Position numbers and translations under genes: made by a program. The notes below the pieces were generated by a model, which made no database searches, was not told the DNA's origin, and was given only the letters and a program-made list of their open reading frames with translations. From a virus: a stretch of 64,000 nucleotides of DNA. The stretch spans positions 32,001-96,000 of the IMG/VR virus record IMGVR_UViG_3300028948_000703, one strand, 5' to 3'. Positions 2,870 through 62,990 of the stretch are shown here, piece after piece (the first letter of the stretch is position 1; every line of letters starts with the position of its first letter).

Positions 2870-3541
2870 ATGATACCCCTTTATTGTGTGTGTACTACAA
2901 ATGCCGAACGTATCAGTCGTATGACGATGCGTTTTACTCAGCTGGGACTATATCACGAATTTGTGCCAAGTCCCGGTACTTGTATAGATGGACATCTTGT
3001 ATGTCTAGACAAGTTTTTAAAAACCGGTGCCGAATTTGGCATAGTATGCGAAGACGATGTTCATATACGTCGTGACTTCCTACAAGAACTACCCATTATA
3101 GTCGAACAATTTAAAAAGCTCAAGCTAGATATTCTTTTGCTAGGATATCTGCTGGATTACCCATTGTTACACCATCAACAACACGATCCCAATTTACCCA
3201 TGTTAGCCGTGCCGTTTAGCTTTCACAACTACGGCTCACAGCTATGGGGTACACAGATGTATCTGATAACTCGCAGTTATGCTGCACAAGTGTTGCATAA
3301 TTTTGGTCCAGCATCTGGGTACAAGCAGCGTGCAGCGATTAATTCATCACTGACACCACATGCCAGTGACCATATAATCACCAAGGATACCAGTCAACGG
3401 GCGTTAATTTGGCCAATGCTTGCAGTGGAAGAAGGTGTGATTAGACGCGAAATAGACACGTCATTGCCTGAGCATCACGCTCAGAACGACTTCCATCAAC
3501 GTGTATTCACTGCTAACTATGATCCAGCGTTGTTTGTTTAG
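2870..3541 (+). CDS. Glycosyltransferase family 25-like protein
   Basis: 'GHLVCL', 'IVCEDDV' and 'WGTQMYLIT' are GT25-like motifs; SD AGGAG. Confidence 0.6.
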   Translation: MIPLYCVCTTNAERISRMTMRFTQLGLYHEFVPSPGTCIDGHLVCLDKFLKTGAEFGIVCEDDVHIRRDFLQELPIIVEQFKKLKLDILLLGYLLDYPLLHHQQHDPNLPMLAVPFSFHNYGSQLWGTQMYLITRSYAAQVLHNFGPASGYKQRAAINSSLTPHASDHIITKDTSQRALIWPMLAVEEGVIRREIDTSLPEHHAQNDFHQRVFTANYDPALFV

Positions 3542-3659
3542 GTTACCAGCTATACCAGATTAGCATTTTTGCGTCACCGTGTTGGTCGTAGATCTTGTTA
3601 TCTACCAGCATCACCACCACTGGGGTAATACTGATCGAAACCAAACAGCAACCAACGAT

Positions 3660-10214: not shown

Positions 10215-10943
10215 CTATTTTCGACCTCTTCTCCATCCATTTATAATATATTGATCTACCAAGTTTTTATTAATCATTCTTACTTGACCATCTTTAATAA
10301 CGCACACGCTGCCTTTTTTAGATTTGCTCATTTTGAGCTTTGATTCGTCGGTATGACATGTTATATGTTTAAAAAATATACGACCCATAACCCATCCGGC
10401 TTCTAAAAAGGGCTCTACCTTACTAGGATCAATATGCTTTGTTTTTTTCTCTGCAACATTTGATATCCAAATAAGACCTTTGCGTGTCTGTGACATTTTA
10501 TCCTTAACGTGATCAGACATTTTCTTACCAACATTTGCTAACCTTACTTTTTCTATAACAGAGCTTGGTTTTTTAACACCTTTTAATGCATTACTTATTT
10601 TTTGCTTATGTTCTTGTGTTTTTGGTGCATTAATGTTAAAAACTCCTTTGATATTTCCGTTTATCCAGTCAGATCTATTCATTACATCTAGTTTACGTAG
10701 GACATTCGCTTCCCATGACAATGCTTCGTTAGCAGTATGAAATGTTCGTCTCACTTCGACGTCAAAACTATCTTTACCATATTCTTTGATTAATTCGTGT
10801 ACTTTTTTGCTTGATGTAAAGTATGTAACCCAAAATGTCGCAGGATTGGCAATGTTTCGTTTGTGTTTTGCTACTTTAACGCCATAATACCGTAGACCAG
10901 TTGGTCGATGTATAATATAGTAAGTGTAAGGAATGTAATTCAT
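10215..10943 (-). CDS. Free-standing GIY-YIG (Seg-like) homing endonuclease with NUMOD3-type repeats
   Basis: 'YTYYIIHRPTGLRYYGVK', 'YFTSSK', 'KTQEHKQKISNALKG' and 'HTDESKLKMSKSKKG'; AT-rich and on the opposite strand to its neighbours. Confidence 0.8.
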   Translation of the reverse strand: MNYIPYTYYIIHRPTGLRYYGVKVAKHKRNIANPATFWVTYFTSSKKVHELIKEYGKDSFDVEVRRTFHTANEALSWEANVLRKLDVMNRSDWINGNIKGVFNINAPKTQEHKQKISNALKGVKKPSSVIEKVRLANVGKKMSDHVKDKMSQTRKGLIWISNVAEKKTKHIDPSKVEPFLEAGWVMGRIFFKHITCHTDESKLKMSKSKKGSVCVIKDGQVRMINKNLVDQYIINGWRRGRK

Positions 10944-11318
10944 ATGAAACCTCTTTATCATGCCCAAGCGTCCGCACGTAGATATGGTGGAACGGTAGAG
11001 TGTTATTTACCTTTGCACAATTTCTTTGACAGTTCCAAACAGTGTTTGGCGGATGTTAGGCATCGTGCTATTCTGCACTCCAGCTTTGGTATCTTTCTGC
11101 TAGAACGAGTCTTTGGAGAGTATATCACAAATTCAGCAGGTCGTCGAGTTTGTGTACGTGATATTGGCGAAGAGCATGTCATTGAGGATCTGGGCACCAT
11201 TCCCACTGTGGAAAAATGGCTGCGTAATCTGCCCATTGAAGACTGGATGACCAGCGCACGCCATAACAAGATCATCAAGACTACGCATATCAGTTTCGAT
11301 GATGTCAAGGTTGATTAA
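10944..11318 (+). CDS. Conserved hypothetical protein (DUF6915-like, H..SS.RR.GG...RHRA..HS.FG)
   Basis: MKPLYHAQASARRYGG...RHRAILHSSFG...IGEEHVIEDLG.IPT. Confidence 0.7.
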   Translation: MKPLYHAQASARRYGGTVECYLPLHNFFDSSKQCLADVRHRAILHSSFGIFLLERVFGEYITNSAGRRVCVRDIGEEHVIEDLGTIPTVEKWLRNLPIEDWMTSARHNKIIKTTHISFDDVKVD

Positions 11319-11333
11319 CAAGGAGCAAAATTA

Positions 11334-11756
11334 ATGACGAATACCCGCAATCTACTTTCTCTAGTTCAGGAATATGACGCCAAGGTCAAGGCCATGCGTG
11401 AAGAGCTCAGCAACGAGTTCAAGACGCAGTTCAAGACCATTAGCACGGAGATTTTCTCCAAGTATCCTGAAATCCTCAAGTTTGGTTGGACTCAGTACAC
11501 GCCCTACTTCAATGACGGTGATGCCTGCGTTTTCCACTACAATGATATGTATGTCTGCACGGATCCTGAATCTGCAGACGGCAGCGTCTATGACTGGGAA
11601 GACATGTATAGCCTCAAGAATAAGTACCCTGAGCTTGCAGAGTTTGAAAAGGTTCTGAGCTCCAGCGAGGACATCCTGCTTGCTATGTTCGGTGATCATG
11701 TTCAGGTCACTGTGACGCCGGCTGGAATTGATGTTGACGAGTACGAACACGACTAG
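11334..11756 (+). CDS. Conserved phage protein (WTQYTPYFNDGD.C family)
   Basis: Motif recognised; SD AAGGAG. Confidence 0.7.
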   Translation: MTNTRNLLSLVQEYDAKVKAMREELSNEFKTQFKTISTEIFSKYPEILKFGWTQYTPYFNDGDACVFHYNDMYVCTDPESADGSVYDWEDMYSLKNKYPELAEFEKVLSSSEDILLAMFGDHVQVTVTPAGIDVDEYEHD

Positions 11757-11880
11757 TATATTGCAGGTACAGCGGAGGTTGCGTTTACTACCAATTAACG
11801 AAAACACGCTGTCAAGCCGTTAGGGACCGCGGGGAAGTAGCTGAAAAGGCCTTCCAGAGTGTCCCACTTTTTTAGGTGCA

Positions 11881-20916: not shown

Positions 20917-21183
20917 TAGCAAGAGAGCTTTATTGGGCCCCTGTCGTTTAATTGGAATAGGACGCCGTGCTCGATTTCACTGCCTGACATGGCTATAGTA
21001 TTGATCATACCAGTGGTTGATTCTCTGTAGGTGTTGGGTAAAGATACTGTGCTGGTACACAGGAGAGCATTGGTATGCAGGTTCGAGACCTGTCAGGGGA
21101 AGCAATAAAGGTAGCCTGTGCGTGATGTAACATACAGGAGCAACTAACCCGAGGCGTCTTCACCACTACGCCTACTCTTGCTA
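20917..21183 (+). ncRNA. Unknown structured RNA containing a split tRNA-like elbow with a ~110-nt insert
   Basis: CCCCTG-TC-GTTT-AATTGGAAT-AGGAC (acceptor/D-arm) and GCAGG-TTCGAGA-CCTGT-CAGGGG (T-arm/acceptor). Outer stems CTTTATTG/CAATAAAG and TAGCAAGAG/CTCTTGCTA. No CCA. Confidence 0.6.
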
Positions 21184-31810: not shown

Positions 31811-34264
31811 TTAATACCATATGTTAAATTGGTCGCTATCATCTATCTTATCAAGGAAATTATACATAAACTCCTTCATTGCCGACGGTTTGCGTTGCAT
31901 TAGATCTTTAACAACTTCTTCTTTATCTTTAGGTGTTGTATAACTATCAACTGTTTGATTTGCAATAGTTGTTAATTTGCGTAGAGGAGTTGTTGCCCAA
32001 TTTGGTTTTGATGTATCCAACGCAATTTGCATCTGATCAATCTTATCCATTTTGTTTAAAAGATTTTGAGCTTCTTTGCGATTACCGCCTTCAGTATATC
32101 TCATAGCCATTTTCTGCATTTCGCCCATTTTTCTCTGTAACATTTTAACAAGTAACGGACTTAGCTGTTGAGCAATATCGCGTCCTGGTTCTTTAGTAAC
32201 AAATTTACCTGGAGTAAATGGTGGAGTTTCTTTTCTCTTTGTGGCAATTTCTCTTTCTGTGCCTCCAGGTATTCTTTCGCCTGGCACAGTAGTAGATTGA
32301 ATCCATTTTTGCGCTTGTGGATCCCATACTCTCACAGGTTTTCCAGTTGTGGCAACAATCTCTCCTTTTTCAGGATCACTAATATATTCGCCCTTACCAG
32401 GAATTTTTCCTGCTTGGTATTTGCCAATCCATGCTTTAGCAGCATCACCTTTTAGTCCGCCTGCTCTTGAAGTTGACACATATAGCTCTAAATCTGATCC
32501 CTTTATGTCGCGACCAATTGCACTCTTTAATAGATCAAAGAAGTTTTGTGTTAGTTCTGGTGTATACGGTCTACCAGCTCTAGTCATTGTGACTACGGTT
32601 GCAGGAGCCATTGGATTTAGATTACCACGACGTCTTGCAGCAGAGTTATCAACTTTAACTACTGGTTTTTCATATGTTTTATTTGGATTTTTAGGATGAG
32701 GAACGGTTTCAGTTTTAACTTTTTCTTTTCCTGTAGCTGGATCAATTTCTGTTTCATATTCATCGGGTATTAGCATATTATCAACACGCATACCTTCGCT
32801 GAATGCAACTACTTGATATTGAAGTTTTGTATCACGCTCTGGGTTATAAGATTTACCTCTTTCCTGTGCGGATTTTATTTTTGCAGTAAAGTCTTTGAGA
32901 TCTGGACGAACTGCTGCAACTCCACGAGGACCTTTGATTACCATGAAATGATCTGGGCTAGCTTTGAATAGCATCATATAAATACGATCTGCAGTTTTAG
33001 CTATTTGATCCCATTCGGCTGTTGCACTAACGTTATCGTATTTGTGCAACCATTTAGCCAGTGCTCTAGCACTTTCTGCAGCAGTTACATCAGCTGCAGT
33101 TGGTTCTTTCCATTCTTTACCACGACGTTGTGCAGCAGCCTTTCCTTTACCAGTTAAACTAGCACGACGAGCTTTTGCAGCTTCATCATCTTCTGCTTCT
33201 CCATCTTTTGCTGCCCAATAACGATAACCTGTAGGATCAAGTATGTTTAAAAGTGTGCTACGTTCAAATAGGTAATTTTCTACTAATTTTGTAGCATAAT
33301 TCTTTGTAGAATTTTTTAAATTATTATGTTCTTCAACTAAAACCGATTCGGTTAATATAGTTAAACCTGCTAGTTGTTTAATTCTAGCTAAATCTGCATT
33401 ATTTTCAAGCAATGGTTTTTTGGTCATTATAGCCTCTCTTAGTAATTTCTTTGGTGCTCCGTAGTCGTCGTATTCATCTTCGTCAGATGTAATTGCAGAT
33501 TGTGTATTGTTATTCACAGCATCTGCTTCTGGATAAGCATAGATATAGTATCCGGCAAAATCTTTAACCACATGAAAACGTGTGTCGCCGGTTCTAAATT
33601 CTATAATTTCTGGAGTGTATCCTGGCATAATTTGGCCGAAATCAATGTCAACTTGTCCAAGATTTTCTGCATTTTGTTTTAGCCAACCTAAAACTGAATT
33701 AACTTCTAAACTAGTGTTTGGCCCTCGGTTGTTAACATTTGCAATAGTTACAATATCTTCTTGAGGAGTTTTTGTGAACATTTGAAACAGTTGTCTTCCC
33801 ATGGCTCTTATAGGACCTTGTAACCATCCTGGTAATGTAGATATTGTGTGCCAATTTGGAGATATTCTCTCATCGGCTAATAAGTCCCCTGTGACTCTAG
33901 CAATATCTGATCTAACTGTTACAGGAAGTGTGTTAATTACAGCTGGTAAATTTTCATAATTTACTGGACGAGTGTTAGCTAGTCCTGCTCGACGAGCTGC
34001 TTCTTCGTCGCTGATTTCATCGTCGCCGACACCTTGTAATCTACTCATCATATCACGCATTTGATCGGTAGATGTCATTCCTCGTAGAGCAGACCGAGTT
34101 TGATCTGCTGTGGCTCTTTTGAGTTCTGGTTCAACTGGGCGATTTGATGGTATATCTGTAGCACTGCTAGCAGTAACAACAGGTTGATCAACACGTGGAG
34201 AAATTAAGTCGTCAAATGTAGAGTCTGTGGGTTTTGTTATTGTTGGGCGATTAACCGGCGGCAT
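31811..34264 (-). CDS. Large hypothetical late protein (possible two-gene fusion)
   Basis: 817 aa; ATAAATA and SD AGGAG upstream; internal 'LLE...LARIKQLAGL..LTE' motif. Confidence 0.6.
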   Translation of the reverse strand: MPPVNRPTITKPTDSTFDDLISPRVDQPVVTASSATDIPSNRPVEPELKRATADQTRSALRGMTSTDQMRDMMSRLQGVGDDEISDEEAARRAGLANTRPVNYENLPAVINTLPVTVRSDIARVTGDLLADERISPNWHTISTLPGWLQGPIRAMGRQLFQMFTKTPQEDIVTIANVNNRGPNTSLEVNSVLGWLKQNAENLGQVDIDFGQIMPGYTPEIIEFRTGDTRFHVVKDFAGYYIYAYPEADAVNNNTQSAITSDEDEYDDYGAPKKLLREAIMTKKPLLENNADLARIKQLAGLTILTESVLVEEHNNLKNSTKNYATKLVENYLFERSTLLNILDPTGYRYWAAKDGEAEDDEAAKARRASLTGKGKAAAQRRGKEWKEPTAADVTAAESARALAKWLHKYDNVSATAEWDQIAKTADRIYMMLFKASPDHFMVIKGPRGVAAVRPDLKDFTAKIKSAQERGKSYNPERDTKLQYQVVAFSEGMRVDNMLIPDEYETEIDPATGKEKVKTETVPHPKNPNKTYEKPVVKVDNSAARRRGNLNPMAPATVVTMTRAGRPYTPELTQNFFDLLKSAIGRDIKGSDLELYVSTSRAGGLKGDAAKAWIGKYQAGKIPGKGEYISDPEKGEIVATTGKPVRVWDPQAQKWIQSTTVPGERIPGGTEREIATKRKETPPFTPGKFVTKEPGRDIAQQLSPLLVKMLQRKMGEMQKMAMRYTEGGNRKEAQNLLNKMDKIDQMQIALDTSKPNWATTPLRKLTTIANQTVDSYTTPKDKEEVVKDLMQRKPSAMKEFMYNFLDKIDDSDQFNIWY

Positions 34265-37248: not shown

Positions 37249-38155
37249 AAGCTCTGAGATTACAAGCTTAGCATTAGTACCTCGGAGATTATATTCAACC
37301 TTGCGAGTCGTTTTCCTCCGACATCCACAATCCCGGCGACGCAGCGCACTATTGGAACTGTCTACTAACAATGTCGCCTTTTTTAAGGTCAGGCAGTAGA
37401 CCTTTCATGTAATGCTACTCTACAACTTCTAATCCGTTAGCCTTGCGAGCTATTCAGGAGCGCTAACCCCTTACGACTCTTCCGTTATAAACCAACTCCG
37501 CCTTGCGAGCTTTGCTGGACTTGATTCCCTTGCGGGTCAAGCTTTAGACATCTTTCACACTACACAGGGCCAGGCTTTGCTTTTTGTAATCGAAAGTTGG
37601 AATCGAACCAACATACGACTGCTTAAAATGCAGTTGCCTAAACCGTTCGGCTATATCGTGTAACCTACTGTGATGTGCTAGCCCAGTTGCTCAGTATCTT
37701 GTTAGATACCAAATACAACACACCACCTGTATTTCGTCTTGCGGACTACTATACCGTTTACCTGGACACTGTCTGATCTTACGAACCAGCCAATCCCCTC
37801 AAAACTGCCAACCGCCCTTAGTTGCAACACCTTGGACTAATTGACTATCCGTTGTCTATCAGCATTTGGTTGGTTTGCATGTAAAGGTGATACTTGCGGT
37901 ATCTTGCTCCTCACCGATTGGCTCTGGAACACATCCTTTCGGACCTTTACCCAACCGTCCTGCTTACCACCCTTTAGTGGATGGCCCCTTTCGGAGCAGA
38001 CCGGACCTGTATAGTTGGACCTATTGCTAGGTGCTGGTATGTAGGCTTTCCAGCTTTGGCTCAGTTGCCTGACTTATCCTTTATTGACGCTATACCGCCA
38101 ATGCTTTATTTTTAACTACTTACTGCACATTTTGCTTTTGCTTGTGTGCAGCTTC
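37249..38155 (-). ncRNA. GOLLD-like giant structured RNA
   Basis: ~900 nt without an ORF. Many GNRA-capped hairpins (CCGAAAGG, CTCGCAAGG, CCGCAAG), 'AGGTGGTG', 'GAGTAGC', 'CTTAAAAAAGG', and a 3' end 'GGTTGAATATAATC...GTAATCTCAG'. Embedded tRNA. TTGCAT/TATATT promoter at 38165-38192. Confidence 0.75.
37587..37660 (-). tRNA. Degenerate tRNA-Lys(UUU)-like element embedded in GOLLD
   Basis: D-arm TAGCCGAACGGTTTAGGCA, ACTGC-ATTTTAA-GCAGT, T-arm GTTGG-TTCGATT-CCAAC; imperfect acceptor stem and no CCA. Confidence 0.65.
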
Positions 38156-54950: not shown

Positions 54951-55679
54951 TTAAAAATACCAACAAAAATTCTTAATATATTGATCACGTTCCGTTTCAT
55001 TTAATGTTAAAAAATCTTTTTCCATTTTATACCATTTATCCATTAATGGGTTAGAAATTGACGGATACCAAAATAGTCCTAATGAATTTCGGCTCCACGG
55101 AAATCTTCCCTTAATTCTAAATTCTTCAAGCATATCAATTATAATCCATCTTAGATTTGCACCTGACTCGACGCTTAAATTATTTCTATCAAATGCAGTT
55201 GTAGTGAGCCATTCTCTTATTTTTAAACGAATAGGTAAAGGAGCAAGGCCAATAGTCTGATTAACTACATTACTTGTCCACACCAGTGAACTGCCAAAAT
55301 TGCTTAAAGACATTGACTCTGGTACACCTCGACGAATGGGCACTAAATGATCTTTAGTTCCCATCCATGGCATTACTTTAGAATCATGATTCCATTTTTC
55401 TCTTTTATGAGTTACAGGTAAACACACAACACTTGAATAAAAACATCTGTAATCTATAGTTGGCAGATGAAATTTTTTATATTTTATAGTATTTCTAGAT
55501 GAATAATAAGAAGGAGGTTCCCATAACCCAATTATATTTTTTGATATAATTGGTTTTTGAATTTCACCGTATACGCCTTGTGCAAATCTTTCGTGTCTTT
55601 TTACTTTATGTTTATGATGTTTACGAGCCGCTTTTGGCATGCTTTCTGTTAGAGGTTGAATTAACTGTGTCATTTTCAA
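54951..55679 (-). CDS. Hypothetical protein with HNH-like motif
   Basis: 'CFYS..C' and 'TKDHLVP..RG...LVW....VN'. Confidence 0.5.
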   Translation of the reverse strand: MKMTQLIQPLTESMPKAARKHHKHKVKRHERFAQGVYGEIQKPIISKNIIGLWEPPSYYSSRNTIKYKKFHLPTIDYRCFYSSVVCLPVTHKREKWNHDSKVMPWMGTKDHLVPIRRGVPESMSLSNFGSSLVWTSNVVNQTIGLAPLPIRLKIREWLTTTAFDRNNLSVESGANLRWIIIDMLEEFRIKGRFPWSRNSLGLFWYPSISNPLMDKWYKMEKDFLTLNETERDQYIKNFCWYF

Positions 55680-56631
55680 TAAAAATCTTTTTCCCGTGTT
55701 TCCTCAAGCGAAAACCTTTGACATACAATTCATTTTTAGAATCAAACGTAGCATTTTTAATTCCGTGCGAGAATTGTTCAATATGTCCAATGCTATATCC
55801 ATATACTTCGTTGTTGCTTAGAATATGAAGAATTAGATTCTTAATTCTAAGAGAACTTAGCTTTTGAATTTTAGTCCAGTCTAGAACATTATCATCAATT
55901 TTTGAGTTTTGATAATCATTCATAGCCAAGTCTGTGTTTAATTCCCACGACTCTCCCAATAGTTCAATACTTTTAGCAATATTGATATCTGCAATATCAA
56001 ATCTACTAGAGATCACTGGCCATACTTCGTGACGAATATAGTTGCGATCATATTTTGTATCATAATTACTAGTATCATTGCAAGATTGAATATCATTCAG
56101 AGCAGCATATGCTTCAATTGTACTGCGACTTACATTTAAAAGAGGTCGAACAATTGATACATCACTGTCGTACCAACAAGGACTAACAACTGGCATGCTT
56201 TTTAGCCCTCGAATACCACTACCACGGAATAGCTTCAAAAAGAAAGTTTCAATTTGGTCGTTCATGTGATGTGCTAAGATCAGCGTATCTGACTTAGTTT
56301 CACAAAATGCTTGATATCGAGCTTGTCTTGCAGCATACTCGACATTTTTGCCAAACGAATCAATGTTAACATTCTTAATAGTGCAAGACAACCCAAGATT
56401 TGCACAGGTCATACTTACTAGATCTGCCCAATTATCACTGTTTGGATGAATTCTGTGATTAATATGCATAATGTGCATTTCTTTGTCAATATGGTCTTTA
56501 TTGTCTGCTAACCAGTGCAATAGTACCATACTATCAACACCGCCGCTTACACCTACCAGGCATCGACGACTATCTTTGATAAGTCTATTAAACCAATTTG
56601 TATCGATTAATTGCATATGTGATTCCATCAT
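55621..56631 (-). CDS. tilS: tRNA(Ile)-lysidine synthetase
   Basis: PP-loop 'VSGGVDSMVLL', 'AAR.ARY', 'AHH.NDQ.ETF', 'RGSG..GL', 'RPLL' and 'RNYIR'. Confidence 0.93.
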   Translation of the reverse strand: MMESHMQLIDTNWFNRLIKDSRRCLVGVSGGVDSMVLLHWLADNKDHIDKEMHIMHINHRIHPNSDNWADLVSMTCANLGLSCTIKNVNIDSFGKNVEYAARQARYQAFCETKSDTLILAHHMNDQIETFFLKLFRGSGIRGLKSMPVVSPCWYDSDVSIVRPLLNVSRSTIEAYAALNDIQSCNDTSNYDTKYDRNYIRHEVWPVISSRFDIADINIAKSIELLGESWELNTDLAMNDYQNSKIDDNVLDWTKIQKLSSLRIKNLILHILSNNEVYGYSIGHIEQFSHGIKNATFDSKNELYVKGFRLRKHGKKIFIENDTVNSTSNRKHAKSGS

Positions 56632-61529: not shown

Positions 61530-61604
61530 TGTTTCTCCATATTTGTAAGAAATTTACATTAAATTATAATTGATTTTTTACAAAAATCAAATGGATACCA
61601 AAAA

Positions 61605-61877
61605 GGTAGGCGAATAGTTGCCTATCCGCCTTTCTGTTTCCAGGTTCCCTTTAAAACCCATTGAGGCTTACGCTGCTAGGCGAACTTCCTCAAATGCAAT
61701 GTTATCATTGACATTTATTTGTTTTGAACAGATTGACGGTCGTATCTTACCGAATATCTCAATCAATTTTTACACACACGTCGATCCTAGTTTACCCACA
61801 TAAAAAAATGTGGTGTAGGTAACGGGTACTGCCCCCGTGTCCGCATTGCTTATTATATTAATCTACAAACGATATTA
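61605..61877 (-). ncRNA. ssrA: Permuted (two-piece) tmRNA, tag (A)VNDNIAFEEVRLAA
   Basis: The acceptor piece ends GAC-ACGGG-GGCAGTA-CCCGT-TACCTAC-A-CCA (61811), followed by an 11-nt spacer. The coding piece starts GTGGGTA-AACTAGGATCGAC (61799), giving G3.U70. Tag ORF is 61712-61668. Confidence 0.92.
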
Positions 61878-61887
61878 ATTATATTTA

Positions 61888-62517
61888 TTATGTTGTAATA
61901 GAAGAAGTCAAATTTTTTCTAAACTCAGTTGAAATAAAATCTAAATCAGATTTATAGTATAATTTTCTATCTTTTGGATTATATCCTTCATCTAAATTTG
62001 TTAGATATCCACCATATATTTGTAAACCAAATATATCTATTAGTTTTGCTTCTAACGACAATGCTTCACATTCGGTTAAATTATCTTTAATAATAAAAGA
62101 TATAGGTTCTTTATCTAATTCATTTATCCATTGTCGAATTTTTCGATGTGTTTCGTTCCTAGCCAGATTTGAAAATCTATCACCTAAGCCTTTACCAACA
62201 TAAAAAGGAAAATGTGTCATTCCTAATGTAGCAGAAAATGTAGTTAACCAATTAAACCCCACCGCTATTTTTTTCAAAGGATTCATATGGACATAAACAT
62301 AGTATTGTCGTGTTTGGTCTAATTTTAAATTGTTATATAAACTTGAAATGTCTGTATTATACACATTCATACATGACTCAAATTTACGCCTATTCATCTC
62401 TTTCTTAGAAATTTTATTTGGATTAATTTGTCCTAACCTAGATTTTATTTGAGTTCCTAATTTTGATACTTGTTTATAGTCATCCCAATCAATTGTAAAT
62501 GTTTTAATATTTGTCAT
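61888..62517 (-). CDS. GIY-YIG (LEM-3-like) endonuclease; frame stays open upstream through the tRNA-like 5' strand
   Basis: 'YYVYVHMNP...PFYVGKG.GDR', 'EAL.LEA.LI..FG' and 'LTN'. Confidence 0.8.
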   Translation of the reverse strand: MTNIKTFTIDWDDYKQVSKLGTQIKSRLGQINPNKISKKEMNRRKFESCMNVYNTDISSLYNNLKLDQTRQYYVYVHMNPLKKIAVGFNWLTTFSATLGMTHFPFYVGKGLGDRFSNLARNETHRKIRQWINELDKEPISFIIKDNLTECEALSLEAKLIDIFGLQIYGGYLTNLDEGYNPKDRKLYYKSDLDFISTEFRKNLTSSITT

Positions 62518-62526
62518 TGTAATGTA

Positions 62527-62695
62527 TCGATCCCATTTCGCCCCCATCATAGACACATTAAGTAAACAGCCGCAAAGGTTAGCTACTCCTCTGGTCCGGG
62601 ATACCCTCCCGGTGCTTAACGTGTCTATGGTGGAGGCGTCGGGAGTTGAACCCGAGTCTTGTTCACCTATATATTGCTATCAACGACAGCTACGT
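62527..62695 (-). ncRNA. Second permuted tmRNA-type tRNA-like domain with no recognisable tag region
   Basis: GAC-TCGGG-TTCAACT-CCCGA-CGCCTCC-A-CCA (ends 62628); 82-nt stem-closed intervening segment; GGGGGCG-AAATGGGATCGA (starts 62545) with G3.U70. Confidence 0.85.
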
Positions 62696-62696
62696 T

Positions 62697-62987
62697 ATTT
62701 ATAGCACAAAACTTATAAAAAGCAAGAGATTATAAAAATTAGCGATCACAGGGTTATGAGAATATATTATACAGATAACCTTAATCTTACATCATACGCA
62801 CACGGCCAAGGGTAACTATCCAGCCTGCTTAACTACTGGATCATGCCTTGTTAGGTATAAAGCAGGAAATCCCGTAATAAACCATGTACGTATGATGTAC
62901 GATGTAAGATTGAGGAGTTAACCTTACATCATTTCTATCTATATAACTACTATAGTTATAACACAACAATTATAAAAAGCAAGAGAT
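62697..62987 (-). promoter_or_regulatory. Two copies of a sigma70-like promoter (TTGCTT-N16-TATAA) driving ncRNAs; 18-bp direct repeat at 62713 and 62970
   Basis: ttataaaaagcaagagat occurs twice on the + strand. Confidence 0.65.
62768..62945 (-). ncRNA. Unknown rod-shaped RNA with a pseudoknotted core
   Basis: CCTCAATCTTACATC/GATGTAAGATTAAGG and CATACGTACATGG/CCGTGTGCGTATG stems. In the core, CCTGCTT can pair with AAGCAGG in the loop of ATCCAG/CTGGAT. Confidence 0.55.
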
Positions 62988-62990
62988 CAT

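Follow-up and report, generated by a model that had tools for sequence, protein, structure and literature searches.

Several described systems place mobile DNA in or beside genes for small RNAs, or restore a gene behind an insertion. Phage T4 SegB is a free-standing GIY-YIG homing endonuclease encoded in a tRNA gene cluster; it is reported to be absent from related phages, to spread itself together with adjoining RNA genes, and to have a target that includes a conserved tRNA T-arm motif (PMC2330249). In the fungal mitochondrial mORFs, described for Allomyces atp6 and for Glomus atp6, atp9, cox2 and nad3, an endonuclease ORF brings a replacement gene end (PMC3630166). Genes for tmRNA can themselves contain group I introns, some of them carrying LAGLIDADG homing endonuclease genes (PMC11915505), or can house integrated genomic islands and prophages (Islander, PMC4383910). 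A full-text literature search turned up no account of a homing endonuclease within or next to a permuted tmRNA gene of a phage, although the supplements of PMC11915505 may list cases.

Here we describe a locus within a window of 64,000 nucleotides of viral DNA (positions 32,001 to 96,000 of IMG/VR record IMGVR_UViG_3300028948_000703), in which a GIY-YIG nuclease gene stands between a message-less tRNA-like domain (TLD) and a complete permuted tmRNA, all on the minus strand (Table 1). From comparison with related phages we consider it likely that a mobile GIY-YIG gene entered the phage's own tmRNA gene, leaving the front half stranded upstream while an intact tmRNA was regenerated behind it. 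The apparent second TLD is then most likely a fresh scar rather than a new kind of RNA.

Table 1. Features of the locus in window coordinates, listed in minus-strand order.
Feature	Position	Strand	Remarks
Native tmRNA promoter block	62696..62725	-	TTGCTT 62725-62720 and TATAAATA 62703-62696; now 5' of the stranded half and nuclease gene; aligns with L095
Stranded native acceptor piece	62628..62695	-	Orphan helix 2 5' strand, T arm (UUCAACU loop), acceptor 3' strand, ACCA
Structured intervening segment (spacer) of the stranded copy, 82 nt	62546..62627	-	Fold; 30/88 aligned columns identical to L095
Stranded 5' acceptor strand GGGGGCG and AAAUGGGAUCGA	62527..62545	-	Likeness to intact tmRNAs stops at 62527/62526
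GIY-YIG nuclease gene, 209 aa	61888..62517	-	ATG start; probably a free-standing homing endonuclease
AAUAAAUA motif	61882..61889	-	Overlaps nuclease ORF stop codon, 5' of the complete tmRNA; similar motif precedes relatives' tmRNAs
Complete permuted tmRNA	61623..61910	-	alpha_tmRNA 136 bits, tmRNA_permuted 112 bits, both full models
Terminator-like hairpin and T run	61598..61631	-	Closes the tmRNA unit; sole terminator-like site listed on the minus strand from 63150 down

The upstream TLD was recognized by the Rfam tmRNA_permuted model at 62658-62527 (51.1 bits, above the gathering score of 47; window-wide E 4.2e-7), with the match confined to model positions 33-105. Its T stem is formed by 62655-62651 and 62643-62639 and is followed by the acceptor 3' strand CGCCUCC at 62638-62632, an A at 62631 and CCA at 62630-62628. 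The 5' strand at 62545-62539 makes all seven acceptor pairs, including G3.U70. The promoter, TLD pieces, 82-nt spacer and perfect acceptor stem of the original prediction are thus all in place, and the 291-nt region folds better than 200/200 shuffles (z -4.5). A long stem-closed spacer is not peculiar to the stranded copy, as comparable ones occur in complete tmRNAs of syntenic relatives (e.g. L087, L095, L096, L110, L111, L117 and L120). In the promoter block, TATAAATA is a motif that we take to be that of T4 late promoters, and ATAAATA is invariant in a four-sequence alignment (A3); the consensus scan did not list the block because its first hexamer matches at just 3/6 positions. Both copies at the locus carry the TLD hallmarks of permuted tmRNAs (T arm, 7-bp acceptor stem with G3.U70, ACCA and permuted order; RF04321 / RF01849). 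The downstream copy also has helix 2 pairing, the PK1 region and a tag frame complete with its resume codon and stop. The upstream copy has none of these, and a protein gene comes next; for this reason we do not class it as a tmRNA. ARAGORN reported neither copy at the locus as a tmRNA.

The nuclease ORF starts 9 nt past the TLD, and no stop interrupts its frame upstream as far as a GTG at 62556, so that it runs through the TLD 5' acceptor strand. The sole purine-rich run before the ATG is a GGGA 13 nt away, too far for a Shine-Dalgarno site, so that the ORF, its open frame and its poor initiation context agree with what had been predicted. Residues Y74, Y105, R113, E155 and N173 are invariant among 21 family sequences, and the catalytic role of each is presumably that of its counterpart in other such enzymes. 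A profile search matched PDB 9u75, a GIY-YIG protein (E 0.0025), and the predicted model (pLDDT 91.4) shows a GIY-YIG core flanked by two helices on its N-terminal and one on its C-terminal side; in Foldseek its best matches were GIY-YIG proteins (9u75 at E 4e-3 and the UvrC N-terminal domain). The protein has the features that define the GIY-YIG superfamily, namely the GIY and YIG tyrosines, the Arg, Glu and Asn, and an alpha/beta core. The LEM-3-like GIY-YIG domain of Pfam (PF22945) scores below threshold at 17.5 bits against a cut-off of 27, and a precomputed match to it exists in 5/54 listed homologues. The family is conserved along its full length and keeps an N-terminus of its own, MxxKxFxVDWD. 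A search of 50,697 phage records gave eight distant matches, none covering 80% of the query and none in T4; a single-protein scan of viral contigs gave no relative, and a metagenome scan gave nothing above 52% identity. Homologues with 87% and 65% identity exist, and the closest one readable in its genomic context is 52% identical; relatives number about 340 per collection.

The original prediction also drew attention to a 12/13 match between the 5' end of the ORF and the intact tmRNA. The match exists, but at least one such match arose in 30% of 200 codon-order shuffles of the ORF, which is chance level, and it falls in codons of a family-conserved motif, IDWDD. A separate 15/16 match between codons of the YIG motif and the downstream tmRNA was likewise taken as chance.

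The complete permuted tmRNA foreseen downstream is confirmed, with AAUAAAUA preceding it, and lies 640 nt downstream of the upstream TLD. Its CCA end lies at 61811, followed by an 11-nt spacer and the 5' strand GUGGGUA at 61799-61793. The tag frame at 61712-61668, as read from the DNA, is VNDNIAFEEVRLAA and then a stop; the tag ends in LAA. The 3' half of this tmRNA aligns with those of relatives (78/96 with L110, 87/113 with L096), and the 5' half aligns with them in patches of at most 34 nt, except for 44/61 with L116. The downstream tmRNA is thus, on alignment, a mosaic whose 3' half is clade-like and whose 5' half is atypical. The six sequences that best match this 3' half do not include the 3' half of L095 itself. 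In the window all intron families stayed below their Rfam gathering scores, and no SmpB gene was found in the 116-kb record, which is 28% complete.

The origin of the upstream TLD emerges from comparison with syntenic relatives, among which L095 carries, behind the closest arginase-family gene (65% amino acid identity), a full tmRNA (82.6 bits, model 1-213). The stranded half shares 91% identity with the L095 tmRNA over a 75-nt stretch that ends in ACCA, as against at most 76% with nine other relatives and 64% with the downstream copy, in a comparison that leaves out 4/16 sequences whose T arm the pattern missed (L104p, L111, L117 and L120) and in which the L104 row is the wrong stretch. Counted by columns against L095, identity is 85/101 across the promoter-to-CCA stretch and 20/23 across that from UGAUGGGGG to GGGAUCGA, falling to 34/100 past the break; the likeness to an intact tmRNA stops directly after GGGAUCGA(U), at the start of the nuclease gene. 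The upstream TLD represents the front half native to this phage lineage's own tmRNA and is orthologous to that of L095. An exact 21-mer of the helix-2 strand matched the L095 contig only. The T arm and acceptor, searched as an exact 26-mer, matched only L003, an unrelated high-GC contig with a standard tmRNA, and this was dismissed as chance identity.

Nuclease-free alleles, for which the original prediction proposed a search, are the rule among these relatives: none of 20 syntenic loci (gaps of 54-1954 nt) has the nuclease between the arginase-family gene and the tmRNA, which is the sporadic presence expected of a free-standing homing endonuclease. A distant GIY-YIG gene (31% identity) occurs elsewhere in five syntenic loci, upstream of the arginase-family gene by 2.7 kb or more. 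In L104 a stranded TLD is broken at the same position as in the window and is followed by an unrelated 250-aa ORF, which has no Pfam or PDB match and matches PHROG 23051 (function unknown). Atlas neighbours of this ORF that carry HNH or NUMOD3 score <0.9 throughout and serve only as leads. The break position shared by two unrelated ORFs could reflect an RNA-level constraint rather than a common cleavage site.

The nuclease family as a whole is linked to tmRNA genes. Among 41 viral records with a homologue, 34 have a permuted tmRNA beside it (tmRNA_permuted E <= 0.01; 31 above the cut-off), always, by converted coordinates, within 270 nt of the ORF, and no tmRNA was found in the other 7/41; in metagenome loci, 13/17 homologues have a permuted tmRNA alongside. 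Independent cases are fewer than these counts because several loci are near-duplicates. Such a position in or beside a conserved target gene is again that of a free-standing homing endonuclease. Placement relative to the tmRNA gene varies (before, after, inside or opposite), and in L026 the ORF occupies the spacer of that record's only tmRNA. A search for the arrangement of the window, likewise among the proposals of the original prediction, recovered a stranded TLD, nuclease and full tmRNA in L005 (model 33-105, 32.5 bits), L141 (33-105, 44.8 bits) and L037 (2-132, 39.4 bits), and by eye in L009, with 3 to ~180 nt between TLD and ORF. Acceptor stems of the six stranded copies pair 7/7 in the window, L141 and L104, 6/7 in L005, and 5/7 in L037 and (by eye) L009. 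We read 28/41 viral loci, omitting near-duplicates (L008, L010, L014, L018, L021, L029 and L030) and partial matches (L039 and L041-L045). At 22 of these 28 loci no T arm with CCA end lies within 110 nt ahead of the ORF, and six of the 22 have a whole tmRNA farther upstream, on either strand. The strict TLD pattern finder misses tmRNAs with unusual T arms and was therefore used for positive cases only.

Assembly chimerism was set aside, as the layout recurs in other records and a Logan contig of run X1 (187 nt, 0 differences) spans the TLD/ORF junction, although X1 may be the sample behind the window assembly. Run X3 covers, at 90-98% likeness, the stranded-half region as well as the tmRNA 3' end with the Bax1-I gene, and leaves the nuclease region without cover; this is not evidence for an empty allele because no contig joins across the nuclease region. 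Another tmRNA, one with an alpha-type T loop, seems to be the source of both the loose end at 62527 and the 62557/62621 joint.

The original idea of a homing cassette that enters tmRNA at GGAUCGA and supplies a replacement appears in essence borne out, because of the TLD orthology, the break after GGGAUCGA(U), the nuclease-free alleles, the tie between family and tmRNA, and the recurring layout. The mobile gene is most likely a free-standing homing endonuclease specialized on permuted tmRNA genes of phages. Its insertion point would lie just past the D-loop-equivalent GGGAUCGA, leaving stranded upstream everything from the promoter through the 5' acceptor strand, with the helix-2 5' strand, T arm, CCA-ended acceptor 3' strand and spacer between them. 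It would have arrived with at least a foreign tmRNA front half, so that an intact tmRNA would be regenerated directly behind. The nuclease may cut nuclease-free tmRNA genes and repair may then copy the cassette. Homology would be provided on the left by the stranded half and on the right by either the tmRNA 3' half or the downstream gene; the downstream tmRNA copy would escape cutting. The nuclease gene would be transcribed from the native tmRNA promoter, and tRNA-processing enzymes would trim the stranded domain off the mRNA. The locus also has the two marks of a gene-restoring cassette of the mORF type, a stranded native fragment nearer to relatives than the incoming copy and a regenerated target.

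The stranded copy is fully intact and has its promoter, and selection for some function would explain this too. The TLD might be a chargeable, tag-less decoy for SmpB, AlaRS or EF-Tu after RNase P and 3' trimming, or a promoter and processing signal for the nuclease mRNA and tmRNA. Its perfect T and acceptor stems, G3.U70, ACCA and own promoter block fit such a role, as do the 7/7 pairing of the L141 and L104 copies and the terminator scan, which lists no terminator-like site between the TLD and the complete tmRNA; mycobacteriophage DS6A is reported to have a TLD-only gene, and a similar molecule to inhibit tmRNA (PMC4131195). However, stems have decayed in L005, L037 and L009, no remnant appears within 110 nt ahead of the ORF at 22/28 homologue loci read, and a decoy would oppose the full tmRNA supplied by the same phage. 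The undecayed stems, which the original prediction took to argue for selection, are accounted for as well by a recent insertion, and the pairs that differ from L095 could predate the insertion. The proposed decoy under selection is not supported, imperfect acceptor stems being present in 3/6 stranded copies, and we regard retention for function as unlikely. A variant in which the nuclease mRNA carries a two-piece, alanine-chargeable TLD at its 5' end (from the native promoter, by RNase P and 3' trimming), soaking up SmpB or docking the message on stalled ribosomes so that nuclease is made under translational stress only, seems to us very improbable.

The GIY-YIG protein could instead be a working partner of phage tmRNA, for example cutting host ssrA or the tmRNA genes of rival phages so that its own tmRNA takes over, with the tandem locus an ordinary duplication. 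Very tight linkage to tmRNA genes across diverse phages speaks for this, as do full-length conservation and invariant catalytic residues, which indicate purifying selection. Against it, the nuclease is missing from 20/20 syntenic relatives with a tmRNA and has no close homologue among the phage records searched, its placement varies, and an unrelated ORF occupies the same site in L104, all of which fits mobile elements; we give the partnership little credence. The original prediction further entertained a tmRNA derivative with the entire nuclease as its message, read only upon entering stalled ribosomes. The ORF so close behind the TLD, the frame open through the acceptor strand and the lack of a Shine-Dalgarno site would suit trans-translation, but the copy matches model positions 33-105 only and has no helix 2, PK1 or resume-codon context, proteins of the family keep a conserved start of their own, other members begin after ordinary sequence (22/28 loci lacking T arm and CCA), some with a Shine-Dalgarno site (e.g. 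L005), and the TLD-to-ORF distance is not fixed among recurrences. Trans-translation of the nuclease thus finds no support and is barely credible.

Insertion of a mobile nuclease gene, the reading we favor, would mean that a selfish gene can inhabit an essential-type RNA gene without intron or intein if an intact copy is regenerated directly behind the insertion. The locus also ties a large unnamed GIY-YIG family to phage tmRNA genes. Cassettes of this type would shuffle tmRNA halves between phages. They would also yield partial tandem duplications, the proposed raw material for circular permutation of tmRNA, although this link to cassettes is speculation. Annotation by covariance models will miscount stranded halves as second tmRNAs.

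Among known systems, the locus resembles SegB in having a GIY-YIG nuclease gene free among RNA genes. It is unlike SegB in that the gene lies within a tmRNA gene and goes together with a partial duplication; no sequence relation was found (eight distant phage matches, none T4), and nuclease activity here is putative. As in the intron-borne case, homing endonuclease genes inhabit tmRNA genes without destroying them (PMC11915505), but those introns self-splice in the T loop, whereas rescue here comes from duplication or, in L026, from a spacer discarded at maturation. With Islander islands it shares a target that is split and regenerated by incoming sequence and a displaced fragment that marks the event; those depend on tyrosine integrases in bacterial chromosomes, whereas the genome here is that of a lytic-type phage, and the locus has a nuclease gene but lacks an integrase. 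DS6A is a precedent for a phage-borne TLD without message (PMC4131195), yet its TLD is solitary, whereas ours is an orthologue of the front half of the complete L095 tmRNA with a full tmRNA downstream. In the mORFs too, an inserted endonuclease ORF travels with a foreign part-copy and the stranded native fragment is nearer to relatives (here 91% against at most 71%). There a protein gene has its 3' end replaced and the native end is stranded downstream, whereas here the gene encodes an RNA, the front half is stranded upstream, and a whole tmRNA comes next.

The tRNA-like domain (TLD), the nuclease ORF with its open frame and the complete permuted tmRNA described in the original prediction are all present at the locus, as judged by Rfam searches, ORF analysis and reading of the sequence. 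The part of the model that the upstream, stranded copy covers runs from the T arm through the ACCA-bearing acceptor 3' strand and an 82-nt spacer to the 5' acceptor strand and, last, the GGGAUCGA element. Its stems are perfect, G3.U70 is present, and the region folds more stably than 200 of 200 shuffles. The nuclease frame contains no stop upstream as far as 62556. Because a promoter block precedes the nuclease gene and the sole terminator-like site listed on the minus strand here comes after the complete tmRNA, the nuclease gene is probably co-transcribed with both RNA elements.

Features of the tandem tmRNA locus and neighboring genes in the window
Feature	Position	Strand	Remarks
Arginase-family (agmatinase-like) protein gene	63914-63129	minus	
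Native promoter block	62725-62696	minus	Now precedes nuclease gene
Stranded TLD	62658-62527	minus	Rfam tmRNA_permuted, 51.1 bits (gathering score 47); model positions 33-105 only
Nuclease ORF	62517-61888	minus	209 aa; start nine bases past GGGAUCGA element
Complete permuted tmRNA	61910-61623	minus	Rfam alpha_tmRNA, 136 bits; tmRNA_permuted, 112 bits over 61873-61668
Bax1-I family membrane protein gene	61529-60831	minus	
PP-loop ATPase gene	55621-56631		TilS-like by our own reading

Two details now carry less weight. A 12/13 match between the 5' end of the ORF and the downstream tmRNA loses its weight because it falls in the IDWDD codons, which are kept family-wide whichever tmRNA is nearby, and because a similar match arose in 30% of 200 codon-order shuffles. 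Long stem-closed spacers are common in the complete tmRNAs of related phages that we read. We attributed to chance a further 15/16 match, in which the FYVGKG codons (62206-62191; motif invariant in the family) resemble the spacer and 5' strand of the downstream tmRNA (61806-61791); a rough estimate puts the expectation at about 0.03. The promoter block of the stranded half (TCTTGCTTTTTATA...) is repeated ~265 nt upstream, before a ~250-nt non-coding stretch (62742-62990) that gave no Rfam match at the gathering threshold.

The parent viral record (116 kb, of which the window is bases 32001-96000) is rated 28% complete by CheckV, so the window is a fragment of a large phage. Two type II topoisomerase subunit genes also lie near the tmRNA locus, and Rfam detects several tRNAs elsewhere in the window. 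A GOLLD RNA matches the full model at 37251-37726 (196.8 bits), with a tRNA match inside it (37591-37658). ARAGORN reports a single odd tRNA with a two-base anticodon (21021-21101) and misses both tmRNA elements (61623-62658) as well as three tRNAs found by Rfam.

We call the 209-aa ORF product a GIY-YIG nuclease on the strength of its predicted activity-bearing fold and family; the activity itself is inferred. It belongs to an unnamed family of ~200-aa proteins, with 54 members at E <= 0.001 among 132 candidates and query coverage of 67-100% (at least 88% in 49 of the 54). Y72, Y74, Y105, G107, K108, G109, R113, E155 and N173 are invariant in a 21-member alignment, in which the N-terminus is also conserved. 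A profile match links the protein to the solved GIY-YIG protein 9u75 (E 0.0025), and its match to the Pfam LEM-3-like GIY-YIG model fell below the cut-off. The AlphaFold model is confident (pLDDT 91.4); its top Foldseek matches are GIY-YIG proteins, albeit weak ones (E 4e-3; next, the UvrC N-terminal domain).

Phage relatives were located through the two flanking proteins (arginase-family and Bax1-I family), and a permuted tmRNA was found in 24 of the 41 relative records searched. Twenty loci have the tmRNA after the arginase-family gene, at a distance of 54-1954 nt. Seven of them also show the Bax1-I family gene downstream, and in L087 and L117 it comes immediately after the tmRNA. The window's nuclease was found in none of the 20 gaps between the arginase-family gene and the tmRNA, so that nuclease-free alleles, which the original prediction called for, do exist; at five loci a distant GIY-YIG protein (31% identity) is encoded outside that gap.

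L095, the relative with the closest arginase-family protein (65% at the amino acid level), has a full tmRNA (82.6 bits) that matches the upstream copy in promoter block, helix-2 5' strand, T arm and acceptor strand. Identity amounts to 85/101 columns from promoter to CCA, 30/88 in the spacer and 20/23 from UGAUGGGGG to GGGAUCGA, and falls to only 34/100 beyond GGGAUCGA. In the 75-nt stretch up to and including ACCA, identity to the upstream copy is 91% for L095, whereas nine other relatives reach 76% or less and the downstream tmRNA 64%. No relative compared is more than 71% identical to the downstream copy; four sequences in which the T arm was not found by pattern (L104p, L111, L117, L120) were left out of this comparison. 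For the 3' half of the downstream tmRNA (PK1, tag and tail), alignments to relatives extend over almost its whole length (78/96 with L110, 87/113 with L096); for the 5' half they are confined to patches of at most 34 nt, except for 44/61 with L116. By these alignments the upstream TLD is the native front half of this phage's tmRNA. They are most simply read as a break in the native gene immediately past GGGAUCGA(U), where the nuclease gene was inserted together with, at a minimum, a foreign front half. The intact tmRNA behind the nuclease would then most simply be the working gene, and either a native or a foreign origin of its 3' half fits.

The predicted order of TLD, ORF and tmRNA recurs. 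Stranded copies are followed by a nuclease homologue and a full tmRNA in L005 (model 33-105, 32.5 bits, acceptor stem 6/7), L141 (33-105, 44.8 bits, 7/7; full tmRNA 126 bits) and L037 (2-132, 39.4 bits, 5/7 with a decayed 5' strand). By eye we found the same layout in L009, where the T arm and CCA are kept, the acceptor stem pairs 5/7, and the element abuts the start codon of an ORF past which lies a full tmRNA. The T arm and acceptor 3' strand of L037 have the same sequence in its stranded and downstream copies. In the syntenic relative L104 (2475-3687) a stranded copy (model 32-106, 32.9 bits, acceptor stem 7/7), orthologous to the complete tmRNA of L111, has its break where the window's copy has it. 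Behind it come an unrelated ORF of 250 aa and then a full tmRNA, so this site is used by ORFs of two kinds. Class searches with this ORF yielded only PHROG 23051, HNH/NUMOD3 being just weak Atlas leads. Four of the six stranded copies, the window's included, stop at model position 105 or 106; three are intact and three decayed, as expected of scars of different ages. Between the stranded TLD and nuclease ORF of L141 (1220-1400) we also noted an apparent second, out-of-frame family N-terminal motif and a short stretch that looks like the beginning and the end of a tag joined together, which may be traces of repeated insertions.

The nuclease family as a whole is linked to phage tmRNA genes, which occur in 2.3% of 18,146 phage genomes according to one survey (PMC9004378). 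Of 544 pattern matches in the viral collection, 343 code for relatives of the nuclease, and the best 80 of the 343 were taken. Rfam detected a permuted tmRNA at the gathering threshold in 31 of the first 40 loci. When whole records were searched, 34 of 41 had a match at E <= 0.01, every one within 270 nt of the nuclease ORF (coordinates converted by us), and seven had none; independent cases are fewer than these counts, since several loci are near-identical (e.g. L006/L007/L008/L010, L016/L018, L028-L030). In the metagenome collection a tmRNA accompanied 13 of 17 full-length nuclease loci, three metagenome loci being the same contigs as viral ones. The gene's position varies: most commonly it lies on the same strand directly before the tmRNA, with five loci having it directly after and three on the opposite strand. 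In L026 (2931-3700) the GIY-YIG ORF (2965-3555) occupies the spacer of the record's only tmRNA, its start codon 6 nt past CCA and the 5' acceptor strand, which pairs 7/7 with the acceptor 3' strand upstream, 1 nt past its stop; this nuclease gene is located in RNA that maturation discards. On a high-GC viral contig, L003, an RNase P RNA of bacterial class A (187.7 bits) adjoins a standard tmRNA (116.9 bits) at 10778-11873; this pair could be phage-borne or stem from host DNA that was placed in a viral bin.

Taken together, break position, orthology, nuclease-free alleles, linkage and recurrence support in essence, at the level of sequence comparison, the proposal of a homing cassette that enters tmRNA at GGATCGA and supplies a replacement. 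The remaining mechanism is modeled on the established behavior of free-standing homing endonucleases; T4 SegB, for example, is reported to have a cut site that includes a conserved tRNA T-arm motif and to carry neighboring tRNA genes into phages without them (PMC2330249). The nuclease would cut tmRNA genes that lack the cassette, within or close to the conserved GGAUCGA region, and repair on a cassette-bearing genome would copy both the nuclease gene and the tmRNA front half that follows it. The target's own front half would serve as the left arm, either by pairing with the stranded half of the donor or through an illegitimate join, and the right arm would be provided by the 3' half of the tmRNA or by the gene downstream. 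The target's tmRNA gene would be regenerated and the old front half renewed at each transfer, which could explain the intact look of the window's stranded half. tRNA-processing enzymes would cut the co-transcript at the stranded domain.

The evidence does not support a nuclease made through trans-translation, as the adjacency of TLD and ORF is all that favors it: the upstream copy has no helix 2, PK1 or resume context, and members of the family share a conserved start of their own. Retention of the window's stranded domain for a function, whether as promoter plus processing signal or as the tag-less SmpB decoy originally considered, a role proposed for the TLD-only gene of DS6A (PMC4131195), is less likely, with the decoy reading unsupported, but may apply to this copy; the decayed stranded copies elsewhere argue against such a role in general. 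That the nuclease is a non-selfish partner of tmRNA conflicts with its absence from 20/20 syntenic relatives and with its variable gene position.

Group I introns, some with LAGLIDADG endonuclease genes, have been described in tmRNA genes (PMC11915505), as have two-piece tmRNAs of phages (PMC9004378). Our full-text literature search returned no description of free-standing endonuclease genes located at the permuted tmRNA genes of phages. What we add is a variant of nuclease insertion at tmRNA that strands the front half. The closest known design, as presented in PMC3630166, is that of the mORFs of fungal mitochondria, which supply a new 3' end and leave the native 3' end stranded; the window's locus is the mirror image of this design in an RNA gene, with the front half stranded instead.
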